DNA of 64,000 bases from Acidobacteriota bacterium (GTDB lineage Bacteria; Acidobacteriota; UBA890; WLXD01). The notes beneath the pieces are model-generated. The model did no database searches. It saw only the letters and a list, made by a program, of their open reading frames with translations, and was not told the DNA's origin. This document shows positions 40,825-56,701 of this stretch, one piece after another. The DNA lies in NCBI GenBank assembly GCA_965205505.1, contig CBDBHB010000009.1, positions 3,008,001-3,072,000 on the forward strand, read 5' to 3'. Each line of letters opens with the position of its first letter. Position 1 is the first letter of the stretch. A program made the position numbers and the translations under genes.

Positions 40825-43314
40825 GTGAGAGCCGGTGCGGAGCGTGTCCGCGCGATGTCGCGGCTGGCAACAGCTACGCTGGCCGCCGGCTTTCTCGCAA
40901 CGAGCCTGAGCGCCAACAGCCTGGCGCAGAGCAACTCGAGACGGGTCGATCTGCCACCGGCGGCCAACGAGATCGCCGAGAGCGCCGCAGCCTACCAGTC
41001 GCAGAATCGTGTCATCGGCCAGTATTGCGTGCGCTGCCACAACGACGCGAACCGTACGGCCGACCTGTCGCTGGAGTCGTTCGACGTGGCTCGGGCCCAC
41101 GAGAGCGCGGAAATCGTCGAAAAGATGATTCGCAAGCTGCAAGCCGGCATGATGCCGCCACCGCCGCTGCGTCGGCCCGACCGGGCGACCGTCAACGCGC
41201 TGGTGACGTCGTTGGCAGGGCGCATCGATGAAGCCGCGGCGGCCGGATCCTACGGTGGGGGCCGCACGTTCCAACGGCTCAATCGCGCCGAGTACGAGCG
41301 TTCTGTGCGCCAGTTGTTGGATCTCGAGATCGATGCTGCCGCTTATCTGCCGCCCGACACGATCAGCGAAGGATTCGACAACGTGGCCGACGTACAGGGG
41401 TTGTCGGTGACGGTGATGCAGGGGTTCTTGGCGGCGGCCGGCGAAGTGAGCCGCATGGCGCTCGGTAACGTAAGGGCCACGCCTAGCGCGACGACCTACT
41501 CGGTGCCGCGATTCGCTTCACAGCGGCAGCAAGTGGAGGGCGCTCCCTACGGTACGCGCGGCGGACTCTCTGTGATCCACCATTTCCCGGCCGATGCCGA
41601 GTACACGTTCACGATGGATTTCTACGACTCGCCGATCGCCGAGCTGTTCGGCAAGCGCACCCTGCACGATGAGCAGATCGAGATCTCCATCAACGGCGAG
41701 CGGGCGGCGCTGGTAGACATCGATCGGTGGATGAATGCCGACAACGGTCTCCTCGAGGCCGATGCTCCGATTTTTGTCAGGGCGGGACCACAGCGCGTAT
41801 CGGCCGCGTTTCTGCAGCGCTTCGAGGGGCCTGTCGAAGACACGCTCTCACCGCACGAGTGGAGCCTGGCCGACAAGAAGATCGGCAGCTCGTACGGGGT
41901 GACTTCGTTACCGCATTTGCAGGACCTGATCATCGGTGGGCCCTACAACCCGCGGGGCGTATCGGCAACGCCGAGCCGCGACCATATCTTTGGCTGCCGG
42001 CCTACGGCTCCAAACGAGGAGCTGCCGTGCGCTCGCCAGATCGTCTCGCGTCTGGCAACCGAGGCATACCGACGGCCGCTGACAAGCGCCGACGTCGATG
42101 CGCTGATCAGCTTCTACGAGAACGGTGCTGGCGCGGGCGGATTCGAGATCGGCATCCGAGATGCCCTACAGGCAATCTTGGCGAGCCCTCACTTCATCTT
42201 CCGTTTCGAGGAGGCAGCTGCATCCGATCTGCCAGCCGCAGGGCATCGGATCAGCGATTTGAACCTTGCCTCGCGACTGTCGTTCTTCCTCTGGGCCGCC
42301 GCCCCCGACGACCAGCTGGTTGACCTGGCGCAGCGCGGTCAGCTGTCGGACCCACGGGTTCTCGAGGCCCAAGTAGCCCGGATGCTGGCCGACCCGCGCG
42401 CGGCGTCGCTAGGCACACGCTTCGCAGCCCAGTGGCTTCGCCTCCAGGATCTGTACCTGGTGCAGCCGGATGCGGTGATGTACCCCGATTTTCCACGACA
42501 GCTCGCCGATGCCATGCGCCAGGAGACCGAGCTGCTCTTCAACCATCTCGTGCAGGAAGATCGTGGCGTTCTCGAGTTGCTGACCGCCGACTACACGTTC
42601 GTCAACGAGCGCTTGGCCAGGCACTACGGCATCCCGAACGTCGCCGGCACGCATTTCCGCAAGGTGCCCCAGAGCGACCGCAATCGACGAGGTATTCTGG
42701 GGCACGGTAGCTTTCTCACGCTCACCTCGCACTCCACCCGAACCTCTCCGGTTCTGCGCGGCAAGTGGCTGATGGAGGTCTTGCTGGGCACTCCGCCTCC
42801 GCCTCCGCCAGCGGACGTGCCGGATCTAGAAGACAGCGATTTCGTCGGCGATACCAAGCTCACCACGGTGCGCGAGCGACTCGAGCAACATCGTGCCGAT
42901 CCGACCTGCATGTCGTGCCATCGGGTTATTGATCCGCTCGGCCTGGCGCTCGAGAACTTCGACGTCATGGGGACCTGGCGCATCAACGACAACGGCCTAC
43001 CGATCCAGGTTGCGGGCGAGCTGTACGACGGTACGCAGTTGGAGGGCCCCCTCGACTTGCAACGGGCGCTGCTCAACTACTCCGACGCCATCATCACGAA
43101 CTTTGCCAAGAACCTCATGGCCTATGGACTTGGCCGGCGGATCGAGTACACTGACATGCCTTTCATTCGGGCCATCGTTGCCGACGCGCGGCGGAATGAC
43201 GATAGGATGTCGTCGTTCATCCTCGGCATCGTTCGCAGTCCCTTATTCCAGACCAACGACCGCGCACTGCGGATACAGGTAGCCGACGGCGACGACGTCG
43301 AACACCGACCTTGA
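40825..43314 (+). CDS. DUF1592-family protein (DUF1587/1595/1592/1588/1585 domains) with two CxxCH motifs
   Basis: Signal peptide, CVRCH, GMMPP, RLNRAEY, LASRLSFFLW, NERLARHYG, TSPVLRGKW, CMSCH. Confidence 0.92.
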   Translation: MRAGAERVRAMSRLATATLAAGFLATSLSANSLAQSNSRRVDLPPAANEIAESAAAYQSQNRVIGQYCVRCHNDANRTADLSLESFDVARAHESAEIVEKMIRKLQAGMMPPPPLRRPDRATVNALVTSLAGRIDEAAAAGSYGGGRTFQRLNRAEYERSVRQLLDLEIDAAAYLPPDTISEGFDNVADVQGLSVTVMQGFLAAAGEVSRMALGNVRATPSATTYSVPRFASQRQQVEGAPYGTRGGLSVIHHFPADAEYTFTMDFYDSPIAELFGKRTLHDEQIEISINGERAALVDIDRWMNADNGLLEADAPIFVRAGPQRVSAAFLQRFEGPVEDTLSPHEWSLADKKIGSSYGVTSLPHLQDLIIGGPYNPRGVSATPSRDHIFGCRPTAPNEELPCARQIVSRLATEAYRRPLTSADVDALISFYENGAGAGGFEIGIRDALQAILASPHFIFRFEEAAASDLPAAGHRISDLNLASRLSFFLWAAAPDDQLVDLAQRGQLSDPRVLEAQVARMLADPRAASLGTRFAAQWLRLQDLYLVQPDAVMYPDFPRQLADAMRQETELLFNHLVQEDRGVLELLTADYTFVNERLARHYGIPNVAGTHFRKVPQSDRNRRGILGHGSFLTLTSHSTRTSPVLRGKWLMEVLLGTPPPPPPADVPDLEDSDFVGDTKLTTVRERLEQHRADPTCMSCHRVIDPLGLALENFDVMGTWRINDNGLPIQVAGELYDGTQLEGPLDLQRALLNYSDAIITNFAKNLMAYGLGRRIEYTDMPFIRAIVADARRNDDRMSSFILGIVRSPLFQTNDRALRIQVADGDDVEHRP

Positions 43315-43398
43315 TTGGAAGCTCGCCGGAACAATTGGAGCTCGACTGACCCGCGGAAACGGGGGGACGGCGGTGTACAGCCGAGCCTTGGAGGAACG

Positions 43399-44790
43399 AT
43401 GGTCATCTTGAATAAGCCGCTTCCGCGCCGCACGGTTCTGCGCGGTGTGGGCGCGACCGTTGCATTGCCCTTGCTCGACGCGATGGTGCCAGCAGCCAGT
43501 TGGGCACGGACCGGCGCCGACTCCTCTGATCCCACTCGGCTGGTCTGTATCGAAATGGTGCACGGCGCCGCCGGTTGCAACGATTACGGTGCTTCGAAGA
43601 ACTACTGGTCGCCGGCGGAGACGGGCCGCCAATTCGATCTCAGCCCGAGCTCGCTTCGCGCCCTCGAGCCGTTTCGCGAACAGCTGACCATCGTCAGCAA
43701 CACCGACTGCCAGGGCGCCGAGGCGGTTATCCCGAAGGAGATCGGCGGCGATCACTTCCGCTCGAGCGCCGTCTTCCTGACCCAGGCGCACCCGCTGCAA
43801 ACTCAGGGTTCGGACGTGCGCGTCGGCACGTCCATGGATCAGCTGCACGCGCATCGTTTCGGTCAGAACACGCCGATTCCGTCAATGCAACTCTGCATCG
43901 AGAACGTCGATGCAGCAGGCGGATGCGCGTATGGATACGCCTGCGTGTACACCGACACGATCAGCTGGGCTGCCCCGAATCGCCCGCTGCCGATGATCCG
44001 AGACCCCCGCGTGGTCTTCGATCAGCTATTCGGCGTCGGTGGTACCCAAGAGGAGCGCGCCGAGCGCCGGCGAGCAGATCGCAGCATTCTCGACTGGATA
44101 ACCGGCGAGATCTCGCGCCTGAAGGCCGGCTTCGGCCCCGAAGATCGGCGGCGCATAGATCGGTATCTCGAGAACGTTCGTGAGATCGAGCGCCGAATAC
44201 TACGAATCGAGGAGCGCAACGCGAGCGGTGAGGTACGCGAGCTGCCCGAGGCCCCGGCGGGCGTGCCGGACTCCTTCGAGGAACACGTCAAGCTCATGTT
44301 CGACCTCCAGGTCCTGGGCTTCGCTGCTGATGTGACCCGCGTGTTCTCGTTCAAGATGGGTCGCGATGCCTCGTCGCGCGTCTATCCACAGAGCGGCACC
44401 AACAAGGGCTTCCATCCCGCCTCACACCATGGAGGCAAGGAAGAGAACATCGACGAGTTCGCCCTCATCAACGACTACCACGTCAGCTTGATGCCGTACT
44501 TCCTGGAGCAGCTGCGGAACACGATGGAGGGTGACAGTAGTCTGCTCGACAAGAGCATGGTGATCTACGGGTCGCCGATGGGCGATCCCAACCTCCACAA
44601 CCACAAGAGGTGCCCGCTATTCCTTGTCGGCGGCGCCAACGGCCAGCTCGATGGGAACCTCCACCTGAGGGCCGACGATGCCACCCCGATGGCCAACGTC
44701 ATGTTGAGCCTGATGCATAGGCTCGGCCACAACGACATGACGAGCTTCGGTGATAGCACCGGCGAGTTCGCGCTATCGGCGCCAGCGTGA
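43399..44790 (+). CDS. DUF1552 (HXXSHH) family protein, Tat-like leader
   Basis: LPRRTVLRGVGATVALPLLDAM, CAYGYACVY, HPASHH, NLHNH; GGAGG RBS. Confidence 0.92.
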   Translation: MVILNKPLPRRTVLRGVGATVALPLLDAMVPAASWARTGADSSDPTRLVCIEMVHGAAGCNDYGASKNYWSPAETGRQFDLSPSSLRALEPFREQLTIVSNTDCQGAEAVIPKEIGGDHFRSSAVFLTQAHPLQTQGSDVRVGTSMDQLHAHRFGQNTPIPSMQLCIENVDAAGGCAYGYACVYTDTISWAAPNRPLPMIRDPRVVFDQLFGVGGTQEERAERRRADRSILDWITGEISRLKAGFGPEDRRRIDRYLENVREIERRILRIEERNASGEVRELPEAPAGVPDSFEEHVKLMFDLQVLGFAADVTRVFSFKMGRDASSRVYPQSGTNKGFHPASHHGGKEENIDEFALINDYHVSLMPYFLEQLRNTMEGDSSLLDKSMVIYGSPMGDPNLHNHKRCPLFLVGGANGQLDGNLHLRADDATPMANVMLSLMHRLGHNDMTSFGDSTGEFALSAPA

Positions 44791-46679
44791 TTCGGACAGC
44801 GATGCACTCTCGGAGGACCAGCATGCTCCGACGATACGCGGGCCGGCCGACCGCCGCTTTGATCTTCGCCGTTTGTCTGCCCGCGCTGGTAGCGGCGGCA
44901 CCGAGCGCCTCGCCGGTAGCCGACGCGGCGATGCGCGGCGATGTCGACGCGGTGCACTCGTTACTCCGGCAAGGCGCCGATGTAAACGCGGCCCAGGGTG
45001 ACGGCATGACCGCCCTGCACTGGGCGGCGCGAAACGACGACAGCGCCCTGCTCGAGATGCTCATCTACGCGGGTGCCAGCCCCACCGCGGTAACGCGAAT
45101 CGGCGACTACACTGCGCTTCACCTGGCCGCCAAATCCGGGCACGCGCAAGCGGTCGAGGTACTGTTGCGGGCCGGTAGCAGTGTGGACGCCACGACAACG
45201 GCGGGAGGCGCGAGCGCCCTGCATTTCGCCTCGGCAGCGGGCAACTTGAACGCCATCACCGCGCTCCTGGACCATGGCGCAGACGTCAACGCGCGGGAGT
45301 CGACCTGGGGGCAGACGTCGCTGATGTTTGCTGCCGCGGCGAACCGCGTCGAGGCGGTGGACCTGCTGGTTCAACGAGGCGCCGACTCGTCTATCACCGC
45401 CAGGGTCGTCGACCTGCCCGCCTTCGAAGAGCGCCTGAACGCTCAAAAGGAGCAGCGCGACCGACGCATCGCGGCGCTTCAGGCAATCGATCCCGAAGAT
45501 TCCGTCGAGCCTGTGAGGCCCACTCCCTCGAGGGAGCCTCTCGACGCAACGCCGGCCGAGCCGACAGCGAAGCCGGCACCGGCTGCCGAGGCAAAGCCCG
45601 AGCCCGAGTCAGAGGAGGCGCCATCTCCACCGGTCGCCGAGTCGGCCGCACTCGAAGAGGAAGAGGCGGAAGGAGAGCCGCCGGACTACCACGACCTCGT
45701 GGGTACGCACGGCGGCATGACCGCGCTGCTGCACGCGGCTCGCGAAGGTCATGGCGCCACCGTACAGGCCTTGCTGGAGTCCGAAGCCGACGTCAATCTG
45801 GTCAACGCCGGCGATCGCACCAGCCCGCTACTGATCGCCGTGGTGAACGGCCACTTCGACCTGGCGATGTACCTTCTCGACCAAGGTGCCGACCCGACCC
45901 TGGCAAGCACCGGCGGCCTGACACCGCTCTACGCCACCATAAAGGTGCAGTGGGCGCCTAAGTCGCGGTACCCACAGCAGTACGCCTACACGCAGCAGCG
46001 CACTGGCTATATGGAGTTGCTACAGGCGCTGTTGGATGCCGGGGCCGATCCGAACGTTCGGCTCAACAAGCATCTGTGGCATATGTCGTACAACTTCCAC
46101 TTGCTCGGCGTGGACTCCAAAGGGGCGACGCCGCTCTGGAGGGCCGCCTACGCTACCGATGTTGCGGCGATGCGGCTACTGGTCGCCCACGGCGCCGATC
46201 CGAACGTCCCCACGCAGGTAGTGCCCAAGCGCCGGCGCTACGCGGACAGCGGCGGCGAGGATGGCAAGATGGACCCCTCGGGTCTGCCCCCGGTACCGAT
46301 CAACGGGCCCGCCGTGTATCCCATCCACGCGGCCTCGGGCGTGGGATACGGCCAGGGCTATGCAGGGAACTCGCACCGGCATGTGCCGGACGCGTGGTTG
46401 GCGACCGTTACGTATCTGATGGAAGAGCTCGGTGCGGACGTCAACGCCCGCGACCATGACGGGTACGCGCCGCTGCACCATGCCGCCGCACGAGGAGACA
46501 ATGAGCTCATTCGGTACCTCGTGGAGCACGGCGCCGATCCCACCGTGATTAGCCGCCGCGGTCAGACGACAGTCGATATGGCGAACGGGCCCGTACAGCG
46601 CATCCAGCCGTTCCCCGAGACCATCGCGCTGCTCGAGAGCTTGGGCGCGGAGAACAGCCATAACTGCGTCTCCTGCTGA
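44787..46679 (+). CDS. Exported ankyrin-repeat protein
   Basis: Repeated GxTALHxAA units; GTGA overlap with the upstream stop; ends NCVSC. Confidence 0.92.
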   Translation: MIRTAMHSRRTSMLRRYAGRPTAALIFAVCLPALVAAAPSASPVADAAMRGDVDAVHSLLRQGADVNAAQGDGMTALHWAARNDDSALLEMLIYAGASPTAVTRIGDYTALHLAAKSGHAQAVEVLLRAGSSVDATTTAGGASALHFASAAGNLNAITALLDHGADVNARESTWGQTSLMFAAAANRVEAVDLLVQRGADSSITARVVDLPAFEERLNAQKEQRDRRIAALQAIDPEDSVEPVRPTPSREPLDATPAEPTAKPAPAAEAKPEPESEEAPSPPVAESAALEEEEAEGEPPDYHDLVGTHGGMTALLHAAREGHGATVQALLESEADVNLVNAGDRTSPLLIAVVNGHFDLAMYLLDQGADPTLASTGGLTPLYATIKVQWAPKSRYPQQYAYTQQRTGYMELLQALLDAGADPNVRLNKHLWHMSYNFHLLGVDSKGATPLWRAAYATDVAAMRLLVAHGADPNVPTQVVPKRRRYADSGGEDGKMDPSGLPPVPINGPAVYPIHAASGVGYGQGYAGNSHRHVPDAWLATVTYLMEELGADVNARDHDGYAPLHHAAARGDNELIRYLVEHGADPTVISRRGQTTVDMANGPVQRIQPFPETIALLESLGAENSHNCVSC

Positions 46680-46717: not shown

Positions 46718-47506
46718 CTACTTGAGCGTCACCCAGATCAAATCGATCGTGGTGTCGCCGGTGTTGCCGGATTCGTGCCCCTCGCTGAGCGGAACAGCCT
46801 CCATCCAGCCCACGGAGCCGGTCTCGGAAAACGGTGACGGATCGCGCTGTACGCCGCCGCGGCGTCCCGACCAGATGCCTCCCTTGATGTGGATGTAGAC
46901 CTGTTTGCCGGGATGCGAGTGGATGCCCTCCCACTCACCGGGGCGGACGATAAACCGCTGTACGACGACGCGCTCGTTCTCCAACAGCACGTCACCGTCA
47001 GGATCCGCCAGGTTCGGATAAGTCAATAAGAACTGCTTGTCGGCGTCGGGGGCGGCCGGCGCATCTTTCTTCAGAGTCACCCAGATCAGGTCGATCGGGG
47101 CGTCGCCGGTGTTGCCGGATTCGTGCCCCTCGCTGAGCGGAATCGGCTCCATCCAGCCTACCGAACCGTCCGCGGACGGGGAACCGGAAGAGGTAGGCTC
47201 GCCGCCTCCGGTAATGCCGGACCATTGGCCGCCCTTGACATGCACGTAAACCTGGTTGCCGGGATGCGAGTGGATCCCCTCCCACTCGCCCGGGCCCACG
47301 ACGAACCGTTGCACCACGACAAGCTCGTTCTCGAGCAGCACCTCGCCGTCAGGATTCGCCAGGTTCGGATAGGTCAATAGAAACTGCTTGTCGCTGGCGG
47401 CAGCCGGCGCGGCGACCTGTTCGGTCGGTGTCGGGGCTTGCTCGCTTCCGGCAGGGGCAGCGGCGAACATGAGCATGACGAGGGTCAAAGTCAATCTGCG
47501 GCGCAT
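46718..47506 (-). CDS. Exported tandem-cupin protein
   Basis: Signal peptide and two near-identical domains with WEGIHSHPG.Q and GHESGNTGD..IDLIWVTLK. Confidence 0.85.
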   Translation of the reverse strand: MRRRLTLTLVMLMFAAAPAGSEQAPTPTEQVAAPAAASDKQFLLTYPNLANPDGEVLLENELVVVQRFVVGPGEWEGIHSHPGNQVYVHVKGGQWSGITGGGEPTSSGSPSADGSVGWMEPIPLSEGHESGNTGDAPIDLIWVTLKKDAPAAPDADKQFLLTYPNLADPDGDVLLENERVVVQRFIVRPGEWEGIHSHPGKQVYIHIKGGIWSGRRGGVQRDPSPFSETGSVGWMEAVPLSEGHESGNTGDTTIDLIWVTLK

Positions 47507-47685
47507 GGTTTCTCTCCTGCGCACACGAAGGCGCGCGGCCAGTTGGCTCGGAACTCGGCGGCAAACATTCACCATGCGGGCAACTCGTTCAAGCGTCGAT
47601 GGGTCGGTTGCGATTGCTCCATACCGAGGGTGGCCGTTACGATCCCCACGCAGGAGCATTCCGGATCTCCAAACACGGCGCCGAC

Positions 47686-48138
47686 ATGAAGCTTCGATCT
47701 ACGACAATAGCCACGGCCACCTGCTTGGCTCTGGGCGGTCTTCTCACCGCGCTCGGTTCGCCCGCCACGGTTGGGGCAAGACAGACTCAATCGGTGTGGA
47801 ACGGGATCTATACCGTGGACCAAGCTGAACGTGGCCGGCCGCTCTACGAAACCGCCTGCGCCGGGTGTCACGGTGCCGACCTCACGGGTGGAGACGAAGC
47901 GCCGCTGCTTGCAGGCGGCGAGTTCGTCTGGACCTGGAACGGGCTGACGGTCGGAGCGCTATTCGAACGCATCCGTAAGTCGATGCCCGTTGACGATCCC
48001 GGCAGCGTGAGTCGTCAAGAAAAGGCCGACATCCTGGCCTTTGTGTTCTCGGTCAACGAGTTTCCGGCCGGTGAATCGGAGCTAGCTTCGCGCACCTCTA
48101 CGCTTGAACGAATCATGTTCGAGGCCATCCAGCAGTAG
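47686..48138 (+). CDS. Monoheme cytochrome c
   Basis: Signal peptide, CAGCHG, distal SMP. Confidence 0.9.
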   Translation: MKLRSTTIATATCLALGGLLTALGSPATVGARQTQSVWNGIYTVDQAERGRPLYETACAGCHGADLTGGDEAPLLAGGEFVWTWNGLTVGALFERIRKSMPVDDPGSVSRQEKADILAFVFSVNEFPAGESELASRTSTLERIMFEAIQQ

Positions 48139-48177: not shown

Positions 48178-49203
48178 GTGATCAGGAGCGAGACCATGCG
48201 CCGAACGCAACGAATTCATCCGGCAGCCGGAGCTACCATGCTCGCTCTCCTCCTGCCCTTGGCAGTCTTCGCGCGGACGCAGGACAACCCCTACCGCGTC
48301 GCCGATGCGGCCTGGGGCGAGCTCCCCAACGGCCGTACATACGGGTCCATAAGCGCGGTGCACCCGGCGCCTGACGGCACCCTGTGGGTTGCCGACCGTT
48401 GTGGCCAGAACAGCTGCCTCGGACGAGATGAGGCTCCTATTCTGCACTTCGATGCGTCGGGGAAGCTGCTCAACAGCTTCGGCGCCGGGTTGTTCGTGTG
48501 GCCTCATGGCATCGAGGTCGACGCGGAGGGCAACGTCTGGGTGACCGACGCCCAGGTTCGGAGCGGCCAGGGCAATCAGGTGCTGAAGTTCAGCCCGGAC
48601 GGTGAGCTGTTGCTGACCCTGGGCCTCAAGGGCCGAGTCGACGGTGACCGCCCCGACTTGTTCACCGGACCGACGGACGTCGCCGTCACAGCGGCCGGCG
48701 ACATCTTCGTCCTCGACGGACACGGCCCGCTCGGTAACAACCGTGTGGTGAGGTTCACAGGTGACGGCGAGTTGGTCACCTCTTGGGGTGAGACCGGAAG
48801 CGGGGTGGGCCAGTTTCACGATCCCCACGCTATCGACATCGATTCCCAGGGTCGCATCTTCGTCGGCGACCGCGGCAACAATCGTATTCAGATCTTCGAT
48901 CAGGACGGCAGCCATATCGCTACGTGGACGCAGTTCGGGCGGCCTAGCGGTATCTTCATCGATGCCAACGACGTTCTATATGTGGCCGACTCGGAGTCGC
49001 ACTCGGGCAACCCTGGCTACCGACGTGGTATCCGCATCGGCAGCGCCAGCGACGGCTGGGTCTCCGCCTTCATCCCCGACGCTGAGCCCAACCCAGGGAA
49101 CTACATTACGAGCGGAGCCGAGGGAGTCGCGGCCGACGCCATGGGCAACGTCTTCGGCGCCGAGGTAACGAATCGGACGCTGGTGAAGTACGTCCGGCGG
49201 TAG
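48178..49203 (+). CDS. Exported NHL-repeat beta-propeller, PAL-like
   Basis: WPHGIEVD..GNVWVTD, PTDVAV, DPHAIDID, VGDRGNNRIQIF. Confidence 0.88.
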   Translation: MIRSETMRRTQRIHPAAGATMLALLLPLAVFARTQDNPYRVADAAWGELPNGRTYGSISAVHPAPDGTLWVADRCGQNSCLGRDEAPILHFDASGKLLNSFGAGLFVWPHGIEVDAEGNVWVTDAQVRSGQGNQVLKFSPDGELLLTLGLKGRVDGDRPDLFTGPTDVAVTAAGDIFVLDGHGPLGNNRVVRFTGDGELVTSWGETGSGVGQFHDPHAIDIDSQGRIFVGDRGNNRIQIFDQDGSHIATWTQFGRPSGIFIDANDVLYVADSESHSGNPGYRRGIRIGSASDGWVSAFIPDAEPNPGNYITSGAEGVAADAMGNVFGAEVTNRTLVKYVRR

Positions 49204-49239
49204 TTGCGCCGCGCCGCGGGCAGAAAACTGCTCCGCCGC

Positions 49240-50613
49240 CTACTCTTCGCTCTCGGCCGCTGCGCGGCGCTTGTCGACCTCGGCGTCGAAGTCCTCCTGC
49301 TCCATGTAGGTGAAATCGATCCAGACGTGCGCCATCTCGTCGACAGTGCGGTCGCCATAACCAACCCACTGATCGGGATCCGGATTGTTCGGATTGTCCT
49401 CGGTATTGTCGTGCCAGGTGGTGACCAGCAGCGTCGTTCCGGCAGGCAGCAACGGCGCCACATCGTCGTCATAGATGTAGTTGATGTGCCAGTTCCACTG
49501 GAAATCGCCGACGTGGCTGAGCACCTCGCGACGACCATCCGGATAAATCGCTTCGAGGGTCTGCGCCTTGCCGCGCATGTGCATGTGCGGCTGGAAGTTC
49601 TCGATGCGCGCCGGAGCGACGAGCACCTGCTGGTGCTGGATCACGCTGACCTGGTGCGGTGGGATATCAAGCCGGGACTCCCGCGTTCCCTCGCCGATCA
49701 TTCCCAGCATCGTACGGTGCTTTGGGACGTAGCCGCGCGGATAGAAGTACACGCCCAGCTCGACGACGTCGTCGGTCACCTGTGCGCCGTACGCGTAGTA
49801 GTGCACCTCCCACTGAATCATCGAGCCGGGCAACATCAGCTTGCCCGCGGTAGGTGGAAACACTTCGCCGACCTTGCCGATCGCCCACTCCATGAAGGTC
49901 CCGGCGCGGCGTGCCTCTGGAGGAACGTTGCTCGCCAGGCCGACAATGTCGTCCTCCTCTTGGAGTAGATAGGTGAGGACGTGATGCACTGCTTTGCGTC
50001 CCCCAGGGTAGGACGGCTTGATCTCGATGGCGCGCACCCAACGTGGCTCGGTCAGGCCGGTCTCGACGATGGGGCGCCACCATTTGTCCTCGCCGAGATC
50101 CTCGACGGTGTATGGCACCGAACGGACGATTAGATCGGGCTCACCGAACTCGTCGGCCAGCCGCCACTCGGCGGGGTCAGGGAAGTCGCGCGGCGGCGGC
50201 ATGTCGGCGGGATCACCCATGGGGGCGCCTTCATCGATCCAACGAACGATGGTGGCCAACTCGTCGTCGGTCAGCGAACGGTCGTTCTTGTAGCGCTGGA
50301 TTCCGACCGTCTTGTCGATGTGCCAGGGTGGCATACGACGCGCCACCAGCGCCTTGCGGATCGGCCTGAGAAAAGCTCGTACGTCCTCATATGTCAGCAA
50401 CGACATCGGAGCGATGGAGTCCGGCTTGTGGCACTCCTGACACTTCACCTGGAGGATCGGCGCTACATCCTTGGTGAATGTGATCGGGTCGTCGTCCGCG
50501 ATCGGTACGCTGCCCGAGAAGGCGCTCCCGCTGAAGGCCAATACCGCGACGAAGGCAACGCTGGCGATAGCGAGGCTCTGTAACACGCGAGGGTAAGACC
50601 GGTTGCCTGTCAT
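49240..50613 (-). CDS. Cytochrome c-fused copper type II (PHM/DBH-like) monooxygenase
   Basis: Signal peptide, CQECH, MPPW, AVHHV, EVHY, PHMH, DEM. Confidence 0.85.
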   Translation of the reverse strand: MTGNRSYPRVLQSLAIASVAFVAVLAFSGSAFSGSVPIADDDPITFTKDVAPILQVKCQECHKPDSIAPMSLLTYEDVRAFLRPIRKALVARRMPPWHIDKTVGIQRYKNDRSLTDDELATIVRWIDEGAPMGDPADMPPPRDFPDPAEWRLADEFGEPDLIVRSVPYTVEDLGEDKWWRPIVETGLTEPRWVRAIEIKPSYPGGRKAVHHVLTYLLQEEDDIVGLASNVPPEARRAGTFMEWAIGKVGEVFPPTAGKLMLPGSMIQWEVHYYAYGAQVTDDVVELGVYFYPRGYVPKHRTMLGMIGEGTRESRLDIPPHQVSVIQHQQVLVAPARIENFQPHMHMRGKAQTLEAIYPDGRREVLSHVGDFQWNWHINYIYDDDVAPLLPAGTTLLVTTWHDNTEDNPNNPDPDQWVGYGDRTVDEMAHVWIDFTYMEQEDFDAEVDKRRAAAESEE

Positions 50614-50624
50614 GGTGAGCTCCT

Positions 50625-51473
50625 TCATGGAGTAACGGTGACTCGTACGAACGAATTCGTCCAGCAGCACTGCGCATGCCCCGCGGCAAAGGTCCCCGAG
50701 ACGTCGTTGGCGAGCACTCGTAGGACGTACTTTCCCGGTGCGCTGAATGTCGCGGTTGTGGTCGCTTTTCCGCCATCTGCGCGATCGACCGAGAGGGTGG
50801 CATCGGCAAACGAGACGTCCCCCTTGCCCTGGTGCTTGTGCCAGGTAAGGTCGAGCGTGTCGCCGGTGGACCTCCGGTGCCAATACGACTCGCTTCTGGC
50901 ATCGTCGATCGCCCAGACCGTGAGCGTCAGTGGATCGCCGACGGCAACGGTCCTGGGCGGACCGTAGATTCCTCCCGGCCCGCTACCTCCCGGGCCATCA
51001 GGGGCGAACTTGATCACGGGCGGCGTGTTCTGCACGCCCGCCTCACCCTCCAGGGCGTCGATGTAGTAGCCGCGGTCCAGGTGCCCCGGTACCGAGTACG
51101 TCTTGCCGCGAATGACGATCGTCCAGAAGAGCTTCCGGTCGCCGAAATCGGCCGGCACTTTGACGCCGAACACGCCCCAGTGACGACGTGGCCCAAAGCG
51201 GGTCGGCTGGCCCCGGTCGGGGTCGCCGGCCTCGAAGCGATTGTTCGGACCTAGCGGAATCTCGACGACCTCTTCCGAGTTGCGGTTGAAGTAGCCGAAC
51301 GAGAGCGTCCGTGTGCCATCCGAGTTTATGTACCAGCCCTCGAAGACCGGGGTTACCCCCTCCCCTGACCTGGCCACGGGCCCGAGCGGTAGCTGGCCAG
51401 CAAAGAGTGCCGTACTAGCTGTAGCGACGGCGGCAGCCGTCAGCAGTCCTAGTGCCACGCGACCTCTGGACAT
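50625..51473 (-). CDS. Exported protein of unknown function, Ig/PKD-like C-terminus, vicinal Cys
   Basis: Signal peptide, PVFEGWY..DGT..LSFGYFNRN, ATFSAPGKYVLR, QCCWTN; 11 bp upstream of the monooxygenase. Confidence 0.75.
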   Translation of the reverse strand: MSRGRVALGLLTAAAVATASTALFAGQLPLGPVARSGEGVTPVFEGWYINSDGTRTLSFGYFNRNSEEVVEIPLGPNNRFEAGDPDRGQPTRFGPRRHWGVFGVKVPADFGDRKLFWTIVIRGKTYSVPGHLDRGYYIDALEGEAGVQNTPPVIKFAPDGPGGSGPGGIYGPPRTVAVGDPLTLTVWAIDDARSESYWHRRSTGDTLDLTWHKHQGKGDVSFADATLSVDRADGGKATTTATFSAPGKYVLRVLANDVSGTFAAGHAQCCWTNSFVRVTVTP

Positions 51474-51594: not shown

Positions 51595-52959
51595 ATGAGC
51601 GCGGATACAATGGCCGCCGCACCACCAGGCGCCAAGCAACTGCCCCGTGATCGAAGAACCAGCGGTAGAGATTTGAAAATACGAAGTAATCGGTACGTGA
51701 TCCTCGCCTGCCTGACAGTGGCCGGAGAGATGGTGTTCTCTCTGCCATTCCACGTGGGCAGGTTCTTCCGCGCTACGACCCTTGACGTGTTCGGTTTCTC
51801 GAACACGCAATTCGGTGACGCCTTCGCGGTCTACGGCGTCACGGCGATGCTCTCCTATTTCTTCGGCGGCCCGCTCGCCGATCGCTTCTCCGCGCGCAAG
51901 CTGATCGCCACGTCTCTGTTCGCCACTGGCTTGGGTGGCTTCTACATGGCGAGCATCCCGGGCTTCGCCGGCACCACGCTCTTGTTCGGGTACTGGGGGG
52001 CCACCACCATCCTCTTCCTGTGGGCCGCGATGATCCGCGCTACCCGCGAGTGGGGCGGCGTGGCGGCCCAGGGGCGCGCGTTCGGATTGCTGGATGGCGG
52101 TCGTGGTCTGGCAGCTGCGGCCATGGCCAGCGTCGCCGTCGTGCTCTTCGGGCTGTTTCTACCCGGCGAGACGACTGAGATAACGGCGACCGAGCGGCTC
52201 GCTGCGCTCCGCGCGGTCATCTATTTCTACACCGCAATGACCATCGCCGCGGGGGCCCTCGTATTGCTCGTCATACCCGAGTCGAAGCGCAACCACCTCT
52301 CGTCCCCGCGCAACCCGCTTCCGGCGCTGCGGGCGGTCGTGGGTACGGCGTGCGTCTGGGCTCAGGCGCTTATCGTCGTGTGCTCCTACTGTGCCTACAA
52401 AGGTCTAGACAACTACTCGCTCTACGCCGTCGAGGTGATGGGAATGAGCGAGTTCCAGGCGGCGCAGTTCACCGCCAGCGCGACGTACCTCCGCCTGTTC
52501 GGGGCGATCGGCGCCGGGTTACTCGCCGACCGCTTCACCGCCCGGCGAACCCTTGCCGGACTCTTCATGATCCTGACAGTGAGCTACGTCGCCCTGGCGA
52601 TGTCGAGCCCGGCGGCGGGACTGGTCGGTGTCATCTACGCCAACCTCCTCGTAACCTTCGCCGCTACCTACGGTCTTCGGGGCATTTATTTCGCCCTGCT
52701 GGAGGAGACCAAGGTGCCGAGCACTCGCACGGGGACCGCGGTTGGCGTGATCTCCGTCGTCGGCTTCACGCCAGAGATATTCTTCGCGTCGATCGCCGGG
52801 CGGATTCTCGACTATTCACCGGGCGTCGCCGGCCACCAGAACTTCTTCGCATTCCTTGCGATGATCGTGGTGATCGGGGTCGGCGCCTACTTCGTGCTGG
52901 CGCGTCTCTTGAGATCCGAAGATTCGCGAGCTACATCATTGGCACGAGAGCGTACTTGA
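51595..52959 (+). CDS. MFS transporter
   Basis: GGPLADRFSARKL, QGRAFGLLDGGRG, about 12 hydrophobic segments. Confidence 0.9.
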   Translation: MSADTMAAAPPGAKQLPRDRRTSGRDLKIRSNRYVILACLTVAGEMVFSLPFHVGRFFRATTLDVFGFSNTQFGDAFAVYGVTAMLSYFFGGPLADRFSARKLIATSLFATGLGGFYMASIPGFAGTTLLFGYWGATTILFLWAAMIRATREWGGVAAQGRAFGLLDGGRGLAAAAMASVAVVLFGLFLPGETTEITATERLAALRAVIYFYTAMTIAAGALVLLVIPESKRNHLSSPRNPLPALRAVVGTACVWAQALIVVCSYCAYKGLDNYSLYAVEVMGMSEFQAAQFTASATYLRLFGAIGAGLLADRFTARRTLAGLFMILTVSYVALAMSSPAAGLVGVIYANLLVTFAATYGLRGIYFALLEETKVPSTRTGTAVGVISVVGFTPEIFFASIAGRILDYSPGVAGHQNFFAFLAMIVVIGVGAYFVLARLLRSEDSRATSLARERT

Positions 52960-52968
52960 GATCGTGAC

Positions 52969-55341
52969 TCAGGCCATCGAGTCCAACACCGCGTCAAGCG
53001 TCGCCACTAGCCGCTCCGCATGACTCGATGCGAAGACGATCGGGGGGCGGATTTTCAACACGTTGCCGTACGGGCCCTCACGTCCCACCAGCACGCCGCG
53101 CTGCCGCAGCTGGTTCACTGCCCGGTGCGCTTCCACCGGCGCCGGCTCTCGTGTGCTTCGGTCGAGCACCAGCTCGACGCCGATGAACAGGCCCGCTCCG
53201 CGCACGTCTCCGATCACCGTGTGACGATGTGACAGCTCTTCCAAGGCCGTACGCAACTCGGCGCCGACACGTTGAGCGTTCTTCTGCAGCTCCTCGACTT
53301 CGATGACCTCGAGGACCGCCGTCGCCGCGGCGCACGACACGGGGTTGCCACCGGTGGTGCTGAAGAACCCGCTGGTCGCCTGGAACTCCTCCGCCAGCTC
53401 TCGGCGGGTCACCACCGCGCCTACGGGGTGACCGTTGCCGATCGGCTTGCCGAACGTGACGATGTCCGGCACGACACCGTCGACCTCGAATCCCCACATG
53501 TGCGCTCCGGTGCGTCCGAAACCGGCCTGAACTTCGTCAGCAACACACAGTCCCCCAGCAGCTCGCACGCGCTCGAAGACACCCGACAGAAACCCGGCCG
53601 GGATGTTGAAGATCCCGTCGCTACTGAGCACCGTGTCGATGAGGAACATCGCTGGCTCGTGACCCTTGTCACGCAGCTTCGCGATGGCCGTGTCGGCGCC
53701 GGCAGCAAACTTCGCTCCGCGATCCTGGTCGTCTCTACGCCATCGACCGCGGTAATCGTCCGGCGGCTCGATGGTCTCCACATAGGCGGCGAGATCATCG
53801 TCGCGGTCTGAGGGCGACAGATCGTGAGTTATCTGGGTCACACCGTGATAGGCGTTGCGCGTCACCAAGGCTCCGCTGTACCCCGTGCAGGTGGCGGCGA
53901 TGCGCCACGCCAGGTCGTTGGCCTCGCTCCCGGACGACACCAGCATGCATACCTCGAGCTCATCGGGCAGGGTGCCCACAAGCCGATCGCCGAACTCGAC
54001 AATGTGCTCGTAGAGGTACCGTGTGTTGGTGTTTAACGTCGCAGCCTGGCGCGCGATCGCACGCACCACGCTCGGATGACAGTGCCCCACCTGCGGGACG
54101 TTGTTGTAGCAATCCAGGTAGGCGGTCTCGTCAGCGTCGTACAGCCACACTCCCTCACCGCGCACCGTGTGGACCGGTGTCTCGTACGAGAGCTCGTAGC
54201 CGCTGCCCAGGCGCGCCACCCGCCGCCGCTGTAGAGTCGTCGTAGCCGTCTCTGCGGGAACGGTAACTGCCGATGGAGATAGCCCGCAGGCACTTCGATA
54301 CAGATGCGCTACTTCTTCATGGCCAGCCGCCTGCATGGCCTCGAGCGAGTTGGCGAGATCTTCCTCGGAGTTGTCGAAGTGATCGCGCTCATCCGGGAAC
54401 GGCTTCCACGACTCGATCGCGAAATACATCGCCAACCGGGTGGCTGCGAGTACCGGTAGCAGCTCGATCTCGAGGGGCTCCAACGGCGTTACCGAGTGAA
54501 ACCCAGCAACGATCCGCGCACCCAGCACCAGCTCGCCCTTGCGTCCGGACGGAATCTCTGCTGCTGCGACAGCGAGATCCTGGACCAGCGGGGCGTGGAT
54601 CACGTCGCCGAAGTCGTACACGCCAGCGACGTTCCATGGACGATCGGCGTCAACCAGTGCGTTGTGGAACGAGACGTCGTTGTGGATGACTTGGGCGCGC
54701 AAGCGCTGCAGCTGAGGCGCCACCGTGCGATCGAATGCCGCGAACGCGGATTCTGCCAATGCTCGATGTCGGTCGTCGGCAATTCCGCTCGCTAGCTCGA
54801 CGATCCGCCCTGCCCGCTTGATATCCCAAGCCAACGGATGGTCTGCGGCCCGATGAAACAGCCCGCGCAGGCCGACGCCGATCTTGGCGGTGACGGCGCC
54901 CAGCGCGTGCATCATGCGCGGATCGTCGGGCGCGTCCCCGACGAGCCTGCCCGGCAGGTAGCTAAGCAACCTGGCGCGGTGTGGGCGTTCCTGGTCGTCG
55001 AGCACTTCAACCCAGGCGGCGCTCGTGTTGCTCTCGAACACACGCGGTACGGGAAGCGCCGGGGCCATCGACGCCAGGCGTCGAAGAACCGTGCACTGAA
55101 GGTCGATCAGCTCGGCAGAATCGGCCCGGTTGCCAATCTTGAGGACGCGTCTGCCATCGGCGCCGCTGAGCAAGAAGTTCTGGTCGCGCTCCCCACCGAG
55201 CGCTGCGGCTTCTCCCACGAACCCGAAGTCCTCAGCCGCAATTGCAGCTGCATCGGTCGAATTGAACTCCGGCGGCGCCACCGACAAACAGCGCAGAAGC
55301 TCATCGAGGCCCGGTTCTGGGGTCGATTCGGGAAAGAGCAT
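52969..55341 (-). CDS. APH-like phosphotransferase fused to class III aminotransferase fold (hydroxylysine kinase / phospho-lyase-like)
   Basis: GERDQNF, VIHND, YDFGD; YLDCYNNV, DEVQAGFGR, TFGKPIGNG. Confidence 0.9.
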   Translation of the reverse strand: MLFPESTPEPGLDELLRCLSVAPPEFNSTDAAAIAAEDFGFVGEAAALGGERDQNFLLSGADGRRVLKIGNRADSAELIDLQCTVLRRLASMAPALPVPRVFESNTSAAWVEVLDDQERPHRARLLSYLPGRLVGDAPDDPRMMHALGAVTAKIGVGLRGLFHRAADHPLAWDIKRAGRIVELASGIADDRHRALAESAFAAFDRTVAPQLQRLRAQVIHNDVSFHNALVDADRPWNVAGVYDFGDVIHAPLVQDLAVAAAEIPSGRKGELVLGARIVAGFHSVTPLEPLEIELLPVLAATRLAMYFAIESWKPFPDERDHFDNSEEDLANSLEAMQAAGHEEVAHLYRSACGLSPSAVTVPAETATTTLQRRRVARLGSGYELSYETPVHTVRGEGVWLYDADETAYLDCYNNVPQVGHCHPSVVRAIARQAATLNTNTRYLYEHIVEFGDRLVGTLPDELEVCMLVSSGSEANDLAWRIAATCTGYSGALVTRNAYHGVTQITHDLSPSDRDDDLAAYVETIEPPDDYRGRWRRDDQDRGAKFAAGADTAIAKLRDKGHEPAMFLIDTVLSSDGIFNIPAGFLSGVFERVRAAGGLCVADEVQAGFGRTGAHMWGFEVDGVVPDIVTFGKPIGNGHPVGAVVTRRELAEEFQATSGFFSTTGGNPVSCAAATAVLEVIEVEELQKNAQRVGAELRTALEELSHRHTVIGDVRGAGLFIGVELVLDRSTREPAPVEAHRAVNQLRQRGVLVGREGPYGNVLKIRPPIVFASSHAERLVATLDAVLDSMA

Positions 55342-55443: not shown

Positions 55444-56499
55444 CTAGCTCCTCAGGCCATCCACGTAGCCGAGGTTGGCCTCGCTGACCGTCTCGGCATC
55501 GCCGAGAGAATAGTGCTTCGACATGTCCGGTGAGTACCGGCTGGCGGGCGGTTGGCGTCCGAGTGCTTCGGCCATGGCACGGACGTGATGGGGCGCGCCC
55601 CCACAGCAGATCCCCAGGTAGCGAATGTCGAGGTCACGTGCCTGGCTGGCAAACTCCGCCATCTCGTAACGGTTGCACATGAACGGATCGAGCGCCACCG
55701 GAAATGGCCGGCTTTCCGGGATGCAATCGCATGCCGGATCGGTTAGTGCCTGGAACGACTCACAGTCGGGGGTCGTCCGATAGGGTACCGGGAGCAACGC
55801 CACATGGCACGAAACCGCAGCGCGGATGCGCTCCCCTACTGGCAGCATGGTTGCTGGACCGCGCGTGCAGTTGAGACCCACGACGTCCGCTCCCGCTTGT
55901 TCGAGCCGTTGCGCCGCCTCCTCGACGGTTACGTCGTCGCGCAGTCGCGGATCCTCGTGTAGTGCCAAAGTGATTAAAGCAGGCACGCCGGCCGCCTTGA
56001 TGGCGCTGGCCGCCAGCTCGGCCTCGCCGCAGTACGGGAACGTCTCGCCGATGATGAAATCCACGCCCGCCTCGACAGCCCATTCGATCTGCTCGTCGAA
56101 CATGGCCCGCACCTCGGATTCCGAGCCCGCGTCGACCCACAGGTTCGTGTTGCAGATGTTGCCGGCGACGAGCGGTGGGTTGGCAGGGAACTCCGATGCC
56201 ACCTCGAACGCCAGCGCCAGCGCCTGACTCTGCATGGGCTCCAGCAGGCCCTCCTTGCCGATGCTGCGCAGCTTCTCACGATGCGCATAGTAGGTCAGCG
56301 CCTCGATCACGTCGGAGCCAGCGCGCACGAACTCGCGATGCAACTGCTTCACCGAATCCGGAAATTCCAGAACCACCTCCGGCACGAAGGCGCCCGCCTG
56401 CAGATATCCGCGACGCTCGAGCTCGAACAGGTAGCCCTCGGCGCAGATTACGACCCCGGCATCGAGCTGCTCGACTAGCCCTTTCTTCGCATTGCTCAT
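55444..56499 (-). CDS. Homocysteine S-methyltransferase, BHMT-like
   Basis: FELERRGY, HREFVRAGSDV, GLNC, GICCG Zn ligands, PFPVALDP. Confidence 0.88.
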   Translation of the reverse strand: MSNAKKGLVEQLDAGVVICAEGYLFELERRGYLQAGAFVPEVVLEFPDSVKQLHREFVRAGSDVIEALTYYAHREKLRSIGKEGLLEPMQSQALALAFEVASEFPANPPLVAGNICNTNLWVDAGSESEVRAMFDEQIEWAVEAGVDFIIGETFPYCGEAELAASAIKAAGVPALITLALHEDPRLRDDVTVEEAAQRLEQAGADVVGLNCTRGPATMLPVGERIRAAVSCHVALLPVPYRTTPDCESFQALTDPACDCIPESRPFPVALDPFMCNRYEMAEFASQARDLDIRYLGICCGGAPHHVRAMAEALGRQPPASRYSPDMSKHYSLGDAETVSEANLGYVDGLRS

Positions 56500-56701
56500 G
56501 TCACGCTCTTCCGGTTCCGACCTGCGCCACGCATACCCGTGTCGTGGAGTTGAGAGCGGCTGCACAGAGGGTACATGCAGTTGCGAAGTAGGCCGGCTCA
56601 CGGATCTTGGTCGACCCTCTTACCGACTTGGCGAGGCTGCCAGAAACCCGGCCAACATCGAAAAGGGCGGTGGGCTAGAATGCCCCGCTTGGGAGGAGTC
56701 C

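Follow-up and report, generated by a model that had tools for sequence, protein, structure and literature searches.

A 64,000-nucleotide stretch of an Acidobacteriota genome (assembly GCA_965205505.1, contig CBDBHB010000009.1, positions 3,008,001 to 3,072,000; hereafter the window) encodes two adjacent exported proteins, which we call PHMc and UpX (both names were coined in this analysis) and which, at odds that we put at roughly two in three, together make up a copper monooxygenase of the PHM/DBH (noncoupled two-copper) kind that has two subunits and is located in the periplasm, with UpX having a role at the substrate site. The window has a GC content of about 64%, and the source genome measures 5.98 Mb. 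An earlier, sequence-only reading of the same DNA had recognized in PHMc a PHM-like copper protein fused to a heme c domain, and had joined it with a convergent NHL propeller into a candidate split PAM, that is, a bacterial counterpart of the animal enzyme that couples the hydroxylase PHM to the lyase PAL. The first part of that reading is borne out by invariant ligands, by structural matches and by the Pfam matches of relatives, all described below. The span that it covered, which ran to position 51473, also included the gene for UpX, left undescribed there, and this gene proved to be the key neighbour of PHMc.

The PHMc gene occupies positions 49240-50613 on the minus strand and encodes an exported protein of 457 amino acids, its reading frame being open from the ATG at 50613 to the stop codon at 49240-49242. 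Immediately upstream on the same strand lies the gene for UpX (50625-51473, minus strand), an exported protein of 282 amino acids with two immunoglobulin (Ig)-like β-sandwich domains and of no known family. The gap between the 2 genes is 11 bp. A ribosome-binding site, AAGGAG, can be read directly from the sequence at 50620-50625 (minus strand); it ends 6 nucleotides before the ATG of PHMc, and it shares a base with the UpX stop codon (TGA, 50627-50625), of which that base is the last. Because the PHMc ribosome-binding site thus overlaps the end of UpX, we take the 2 genes to be one operon. A scan of the DNA for promoters and terminators gave no signal above the shuffled background.

All the elements that the sequence-only reading had listed for 49240-50613 are present on the minus strand and in the order given there: a signal-like, hydrophobic N-terminus (residues 1-35), followed by C58-Q-E-C61-H62, M94-P-P-W97, H210-H211, E269-V-H271-Y, H343-M-H345, and D425-E-M427. 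The first 2 motifs fall into a c-type heme domain (residues approximately 41-140) and the remaining 4 into a PHM/DBH-like copper core of 2 domains (residues approximately 150-437). An alignment of 44 PHMc homologues, which are 29% to 81% identical to the query, contains 19 invariant columns, 10 of which are C58, C61, H62, M94, H210, H211, H271, H343, H345, and M427; P95 is likewise invariant. Such invariance of the ligands across 44 diverse homologues shows that the motifs are no chance pattern. The N-terminal set, a CxxCH motif with a distal methionine, is that of a class I-type cytochrome c. The copper-site assignments are well supported by the alignment: H210, H211, and H271, the predicted ligands of CuH, comprise an adjacent histidine pair at the start of a strand in the model (residues 209-217) and a third histidine some 60 residues further on, and H343, H345, and M427, the predicted ligands of CuM, comprise an HxH motif and a methionine further downstream, which in this family stands some 70 to 80 residues on. 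The copper ligands of PHM are H107/H108, H172, H242/H244, and M314, with H107 and H108 together on one strand (PMC12164859), and the order and spacing of the PHMc set (210/211, 271, 343/345, 427) parallel this arrangement.

The fold points the same way. The AlphaFold model of PHMc, built on the 44-member alignment, has a predicted local distance difference test score (pLDDT) of 88.6 and a predicted template modelling (pTM) score of 0.83, and displays the core of two β-sandwiches characteristic of the PHM/DBH family. When this model was compared with the PDB using Foldseek, ranks 1 to 31 were all chains of human DBH or rat PHM, with E-values from 1.3e-12 to 3.9e-8 over approximately 300 columns, and the next hit followed at 5.5e-5, which supports the copper-enzyme part of the sequence-only reading. 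Profile searches with the 44 relatives (E ≤ 0.05) are consistent with this result: Cu2_monoox_C was matched by 20 of them (best E-value 6.1e-7), Cu2_monooxygen by 4 and Cytochrome_CBB3 by 38. Judged by its ligands and by the matches of its relatives, PHMc is a divergent branch of the PHM/DBH (copper type II) monooxygenase family.

The group to which PHMc belongs is very large. A word-indexed search returned at least 8,000 matches, the best 120 of which are all at least 59% identical to PHMc, originate from Gemmatimonadota and Vicinamibacterales, and are annotated either as "hypothetical" or as "c-type cytochrome." An exhaustive search of representatives clustered at 50% identity yielded 14,383 clusters at E ≤ 0.001, of which 1,690 remain when the cut-off is tightened to E ≤ 1e-30. 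The source genome itself carries nine PHMc-type genes, four of them close (46% to 100% identity) and five distant (32% to 36%); two of the distant paralogues are arranged in tandem (C9:396277-399418), and another one lies 3 kb from an UpX-PHMc pair (C9:1332971). Certain distant relatives found in the searches (P0127, P0212, P0229, P0233, P0248, and P0396-P0398) carry N-terminal AhpC/TSA-Redoxin domains, and some of these Redoxin-fused proteins also contain esterase, LRR, GAF, or TPR domains.

The partner of PHMc was identified by comparing gene neighbourhoods. We searched contigs from one genome per species, confirmed 556 of 565 pattern hits and kept the best 80 loci, in 76 of which UpX adjoins PHMc on the same strand (68 upstream and 8 downstream); one of the four exceptions is a locus cut by the end of its contig. 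All-against-all clustering of the open reading frames flanking PHMc recovered no family other than UpX in more than 21 of these loci. A separate survey of 31 related genomes, with 28 PHMc loci, gave the same picture, UpX being adjacent in 27 of them and the exception again being truncated by a contig end, and within the source genome UpX stands beside all four of the close PHMc paralogues. Furthermore, a search with an UpX profile found four metagenomic proteins in which UpX and PHMc are joined in a single chain (P0124, P0133, P0128, and P0129), with both orders of the 2 parts represented. The conserved partner of PHMc is UpX and not the NHL propeller.

UpX has no match in Pfam or NCBIfam. Its model (pLDDT 85.7) consists of two Ig-like sandwiches and includes a flexible loop of low confidence (residues 259-267), directly followed by Q268, C269, C270, and W271, which are invariant in 33 sequences. 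Foldseek matched this model only to generic tandem Ig-like proteins (titin, intimin, and S-layer proteins), with TM-scores of at most 0.39 and root-mean-square deviations mostly above 13 Å, and the ESM Atlas offered only clusters labelled "hypothetical" and "putative PKD domain." There are 3,677 relatives of UpX at E ≤ 0.001; among the 120 listed, the named ones are all hypothetical proteins save a single "PKD domain-containing protein."

UpX is predicted to bind PHMc. Modelling of the complex gave an ipSAE score of 0.78 (0.78, 0.75, and 0.78 in separate runs), the best of three controls scoring 0.00; of 80 solved complexes, 58 score at least as high, as do 2 of 110 mismatched pairs, a calibration that is only rough here, given that the score expresses how confident the model itself is and that custom alignments were used. 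The runs share at least 60% of their contacts, and the pLDDT of the partner is at least 81. On the side of UpX, the predicted interface comprises residues 41-44, 62-64, and 126-138 of the first sandwich together with residues 265-266 of the loop, and on the side of PHMc, residues 313-319 and 411-424; the second of these PHMc segments leads directly into D425-E426-M427. The contact predicted beside the loop of the CuM ligand Met427 suggests a probable role of UpX in giving the substrate site its shape or in controlling access to it.

We propose the following scheme. PHMc and UpX would form a heterodimer in the periplasm, in which the heme domain of PHMc (Cys58, Cys61, His62, and Met94) would most likely accept single electrons from soluble periplasmic cytochromes and pass them on to CuH (His210, His211, and His271). 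At CuM (His343, His345, and Met427), O2 would be bound and activated, and a C-H bond of the substrate would be hydroxylated, with the substrate held in a cleft that UpX, bound to the CuM domain, would help to form. The invariance of the fused heme c domain suggests an electron donor other than ascorbate, and from the sequence we reasonably infer that the heme serves as the point of electron entry in its place.

Several observations weigh against this assignment. PHMc itself has no match in Pfam or NCBIfam, and thus none to Cu2_monooxygen (PF01082) or Cu2_monoox_C (PF03712) at the curated thresholds. Against the sequences of the PDB, the sole match of PHMc was a weak one in the heme motif, to the alpha subunit of hydrazine synthase (E 0.22 with the single sequence and 0.036 with the profile). 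The TM-scores of the Foldseek matches are moderate (0.35 to 0.60 on the target) and the root-mean-square deviations amount to 6 to 9 Å, which may reflect an interdomain angle differing from that of PHM and DBH. As for the partner, UpX was absent within 8 kb of PHMc (profile E ≤ 10) in 3 of the 79 assessable loci (L036, L040, and L041), and it stands beside none of the five distant paralogues of the source genome. The single-chain proteins, being of metagenomic origin, may be artefacts of frameshift, read-through, or gene calling, and the rough calibration of the complex score counts on the same side.

The same heme-copper architecture could also belong to an electron-transfer oxidoreductase that reduces O2, peroxide, or nitrite at CuM and hydroxylates no C-H bond. 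Where a copper nitrite reductase carries a fused cytochrome c domain, the heme is the periplasmic point of electron entry to a two-site copper enzyme, and the heme c of PHMc would offer a one-electron entry of the same type. An AhpC/TSA-Redoxin domain stands at the N-terminus of 5 of the 10 longer PHMc relatives that were scanned, others being fused to peroxiredoxin-type domains, and the PDB holds, judging from the entry titles, structures of PHM with nitrite and with azide bound. However, the characterized members of this fold that have the His3 and His2Met ligand sets are all substrate hydroxylases, the locus shows no pointer to denitrification or peroxide stress, and a tightly conserved partner close to CuM is better suited to the handling of a substrate. 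We therefore regard a reductase of this type as quite unlikely.

Alternatively, UpX could be the substrate of PHMc rather than its subunit, with the Cys-Cys-Trp stretch or the flexible loop being oxidized into a protein-derived cofactor or cross-link. The location of the invariant QCCW motif (residues 268-271) behind the flexible loop would suit such a modification, as would the predicted contact of loop residues 265-266 with PHMc beside the CuM loop. Yet the main predicted interface is formed by the rigid N-terminal sandwich of UpX and not by the loop, and both the 1:1 pairing of the genes and their fusions suit a stable subunit equally well; a substrate role for UpX is thus very doubtful, and we retain UpX as a probable subunit of the monooxygenase.

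The remaining alternative is the one favoured by the sequence-only reading, according to which PHMc would act as the hydroxylase on glycine-extended peptides or on N-acylglycines, with the NHL protein opposite it as the PAL-like lyase. The NHL gene (48178-49203, plus strand) is located where that reading had placed it: it ends at 49203, 36 bp from the stop codon of PHMc at 49240, tail to tail with it, and encodes an exported protein of 341 amino acids with a hydrophobic N-terminus and a Pfam NHL match (PF01436, E 2.7e-25). The product is a six-blade propeller, as is PAL, and matches rat PAL (3fvz) at E 1.5e-24 over one continuous stretch of 165 residues in blades 2 to 4, but the NHL domains of TRIM71, Thin, and TRIM2 outscore PAL overall. 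Which genes are found together across genomes, named beforehand as a test of the pairing, speaks against it. Only 1 of the 80 species-level loci has an NHL gene adjoining PHMc (L001, 98% identical to the window); elsewhere, an NHL gene lies 3.7 kb from PHMc and beyond other genes in L012, and L073 and L079 contain weak NHL-like pieces. Altogether, the flanks of PHMc yielded 4 NHL-like matches in 1.17 Mb, where the NHL gene density of the source genome would lead one to expect approximately 3.1. Among the 28 loci of the related genomes, the adjacency is kept in 3, including the window, all representing the same orthologous locus within one genus (G004, 98% identity; G003, 84%), whereas the remaining 25 lack it. 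In the source genome, the 8 further PHMc paralogues all stand without an NHL gene beside them, about 30 kb being the shortest distance to one, and none of the 10 longer fused relatives contains an NHL domain, which is weak evidence.

The residues of the NHL protein likewise depart from those of PAL. We take the zinc ligands of PAL to be His585, His690, and His786, numbers that agree with the PAL residues in the alignment, and Tyr654 to be its catalytic residue. In the NHL protein, H110 is aligned with His585, which is thus kept, and H217 occupies the equivalent blade position in blade 4, which makes it a possible counterpart of His690; the position of His786 is held by Glu315 according to the repeat register, so that the three-histidine zinc site would be incomplete, and His182 stands where PAL has Tyr654. 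With the last blade as the only query, PAL did not come up among matches at E ≤ 10. H110, H182, H217, and E315 are conserved in 7 members of the NHL family, pointing to a probable metal site, though not that of PAL, and the conserved residues suggest that the family consists of metal-dependent, possibly redox-linked enzymes. Two cysteines near the N-terminus are also kept in this family.

The NHL gene belongs with another neighbour. It lies, on the same strand, 39 bp downstream of a gene for a small c-type cytochrome with a CAGCH motif (47686-48138, plus strand), which is retained at this locus in G003 and G004, and the pair of cytochrome c and NHL genes recurs in the source genome at C9:1675531/1674272 (C9:1674272-1676178, minus strand). 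The NHL gene of this second copy is 58% identical to the first and contains an in-frame TGA. By this comparison, the cytochrome c and NHL genes are a separate unit that is found at this place only in this genus.

The substrate site of PHMc bears on the same question. In PHM, R240, two residues before H242, binds the C-terminal carboxylate of the substrate (PMC12164859). The equivalent position in PHMc, in a register derived from the motif and not from superposition, is Gln341, which is invariant in 26 close homologues. With glutamine at the carboxylate-binding position, a glycine-extended substrate is not indicated, and the substrate of PHMc is probably not one with a C-terminal glycine. The lyase step, moreover, can run spontaneously above neutral pH (PMC6529398). 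A split PAM, in spite of the PHM fold and ligands of PHMc, the PAL match and probable metal site of the propeller, and an adjacency that another two genomes of the genus share, is highly improbable, since the two genes are convergent and neither fused nor consistently co-encoded, and the NHL gene follows a cytochrome gene of its own. Conservation of adjacency favours UpX over the NHL gene by 76 to 1 of the 80 loci, and the designation "PAM" was accordingly dropped for the UpX-PHMc pair.

Other genes recur near UpX-PHMc at lower frequency. A soluble pyrroloquinoline quinone (PQQ) dehydrogenase is encoded beside the pair in 21 of the 80 loci, from several orders (L003, L007, L010-L014, L020, L021, L026-L028, L031, L034, L037, L064, L067, L073, L075, L077, and L078), and a family of small cytochromes c in 16, many of which are the same loci; a sodium:sulfate/citrate-type transporter was found in 14 and a creatininase-like gene in 11. 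The best-scoring model for the neighbouring PQQ enzymes is that for glucose, quinate, and shikimate dehydrogenases, below all curated cut-offs, and a link to dehydrogenases of the methanol/ethanol type was rejected on these scores. One could imagine UpX-PHMc as a soluble periplasmic C-H hydroxylase that is driven by the respiratory chain and acts on a small environmental substrate, in a loop with the PQQ dehydrogenase and cytochrome c: at the 21 loci, the dehydrogenase would oxidize the alcohol product and the electrons would return to the hydroxylase via the cytochrome. We consider this extension unlikely; if true, the PHM/DBH family would be at its largest and most diverse among Acidobacteriota and Gemmatimonadota of soil and sea.

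On the far side of the NHL gene, the window contains three consecutive genes on the plus strand, for a DUF1592-type PSD/PSCyt protein (40825-43314), a DUF1552 protein (43315-44790), and an ankyrin-repeat protein (44787-46679). In 11 of the 80 loci (L001 and L004 from Acidobacteriota and 9 from Gemmatimonadota), the complete trio lies no more than 8 kb from UpX-PHMc, and its families, when counted singly, occur in 11 to 13; near the other PHMc paralogues of the source genome, the trio is not found. A functional link between the trio and UpX-PHMc is possible judging from this co-occurrence. At the loci whose reading-frame coordinates were inspected, L045 among them, the trio is convergent to PHMc, which makes the genes for the cupin, the cytochrome, and the NHL protein in the window look as though they had been inserted between two older units. 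The cupin gene (46718-47509, minus strand) encodes an exported protein of 263 amino acids with two near-identical cupin-like halves and a weak match to Cupin_2, and has 7 paralogues in the source genome. On the opposite flank, the next gene after UpX is a divergent one for a major facilitator superfamily transporter (51595-52959), followed by a gene for a 790-residue fusion of an APH-type kinase with a class-III aminotransferase (52969-55341, minus strand), which adjoins a gene of the homocysteine S-methyltransferase family (55444-56601).

PHM and DBH are textbook animal enzymes. We found no description of bacterial heme-fused PHM-like enzymes in the literature, in a search whose coverage left out most subscription journals and supplements, so that a prior description is possible, and databases may already flag the superfamily. 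Judged by sequence matches, the PHMc group forms a bacterial branch of the PHM/DBH family that is very large and has apparently gone undescribed. In a survey of cuproproteins, the table places PHM and DBM under eukaryotes only (PMC7435645). What is new here is a predicted copper monooxygenase of the PHM/DBH type that carries its own heme c and is accompanied by a dedicated partner, the latter of no known family and added in one strongly conserved PHMc subfamily (approximately 60% identity across two phyla). Such an enzyme would present the PHM mechanism, a matter of much debate, in a form that needs no ascorbate and may be more tractable, and would point to an oxidative reaction widespread among Acidobacteriota and Gemmatimonadota of soil and sea. 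The notion of a paired amidating system in bacteria, appealing as it is, finds no support in these results and is corrected by them.

Comparison with known systems places UpX-PHMc closest to the animal enzymes. PAL shares with the NHL protein of the window the six-blade propeller, the match in blades 2 to 4 and the His585 equivalent, but differs in having Tyr654 and His786 where the NHL protein has His182 and Glu315, and the NHL gene is paired with a cytochrome c gene and not with PHMc. Particulate methane monooxygenase and methanol dehydrogenase have been proposed to form a closed electron loop, which the loop with a PQQ dehydrogenase considered above for UpX-PHMc would resemble. Nitrite reductases with a fused cytochrome resemble PHMc in the combination of a heme c with a two-site copper enzyme, whereas their fold (a cupredoxin trimer), copper sites, and chemistry differ. 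Human DBH (4zel) is the best structural match to PHMc (E 1.3e-12 over 315 columns, at 16% identity) and, like PHMc, has an added N-terminal domain, which is a c-type cytochrome in PHMc and in DBH a DOMON domain preceding the PHM-like core (PMC12164859); the dimerization domain of DBH has no counterpart in PHMc. Finally, PHM, the catalytic core of animal PAM (1phm and 3mll), shares with PHMc the core of two β-sandwiches (Foldseek E-values from 4e-11 to 4e-8) and the HH...H and HxH...M ligand pattern, whose order is identical and whose spacing is similar, at 13% to 16% sequence identity. PHMc differs from it in being bacterial and periplasmic, in carrying a predicted covalent heme c domain at the N-terminus where PHM relies on ascorbate, in having glutamine at the position of Arg240, and in being accompanied by a conserved separate partner, UpX, in place of a conserved PAL.

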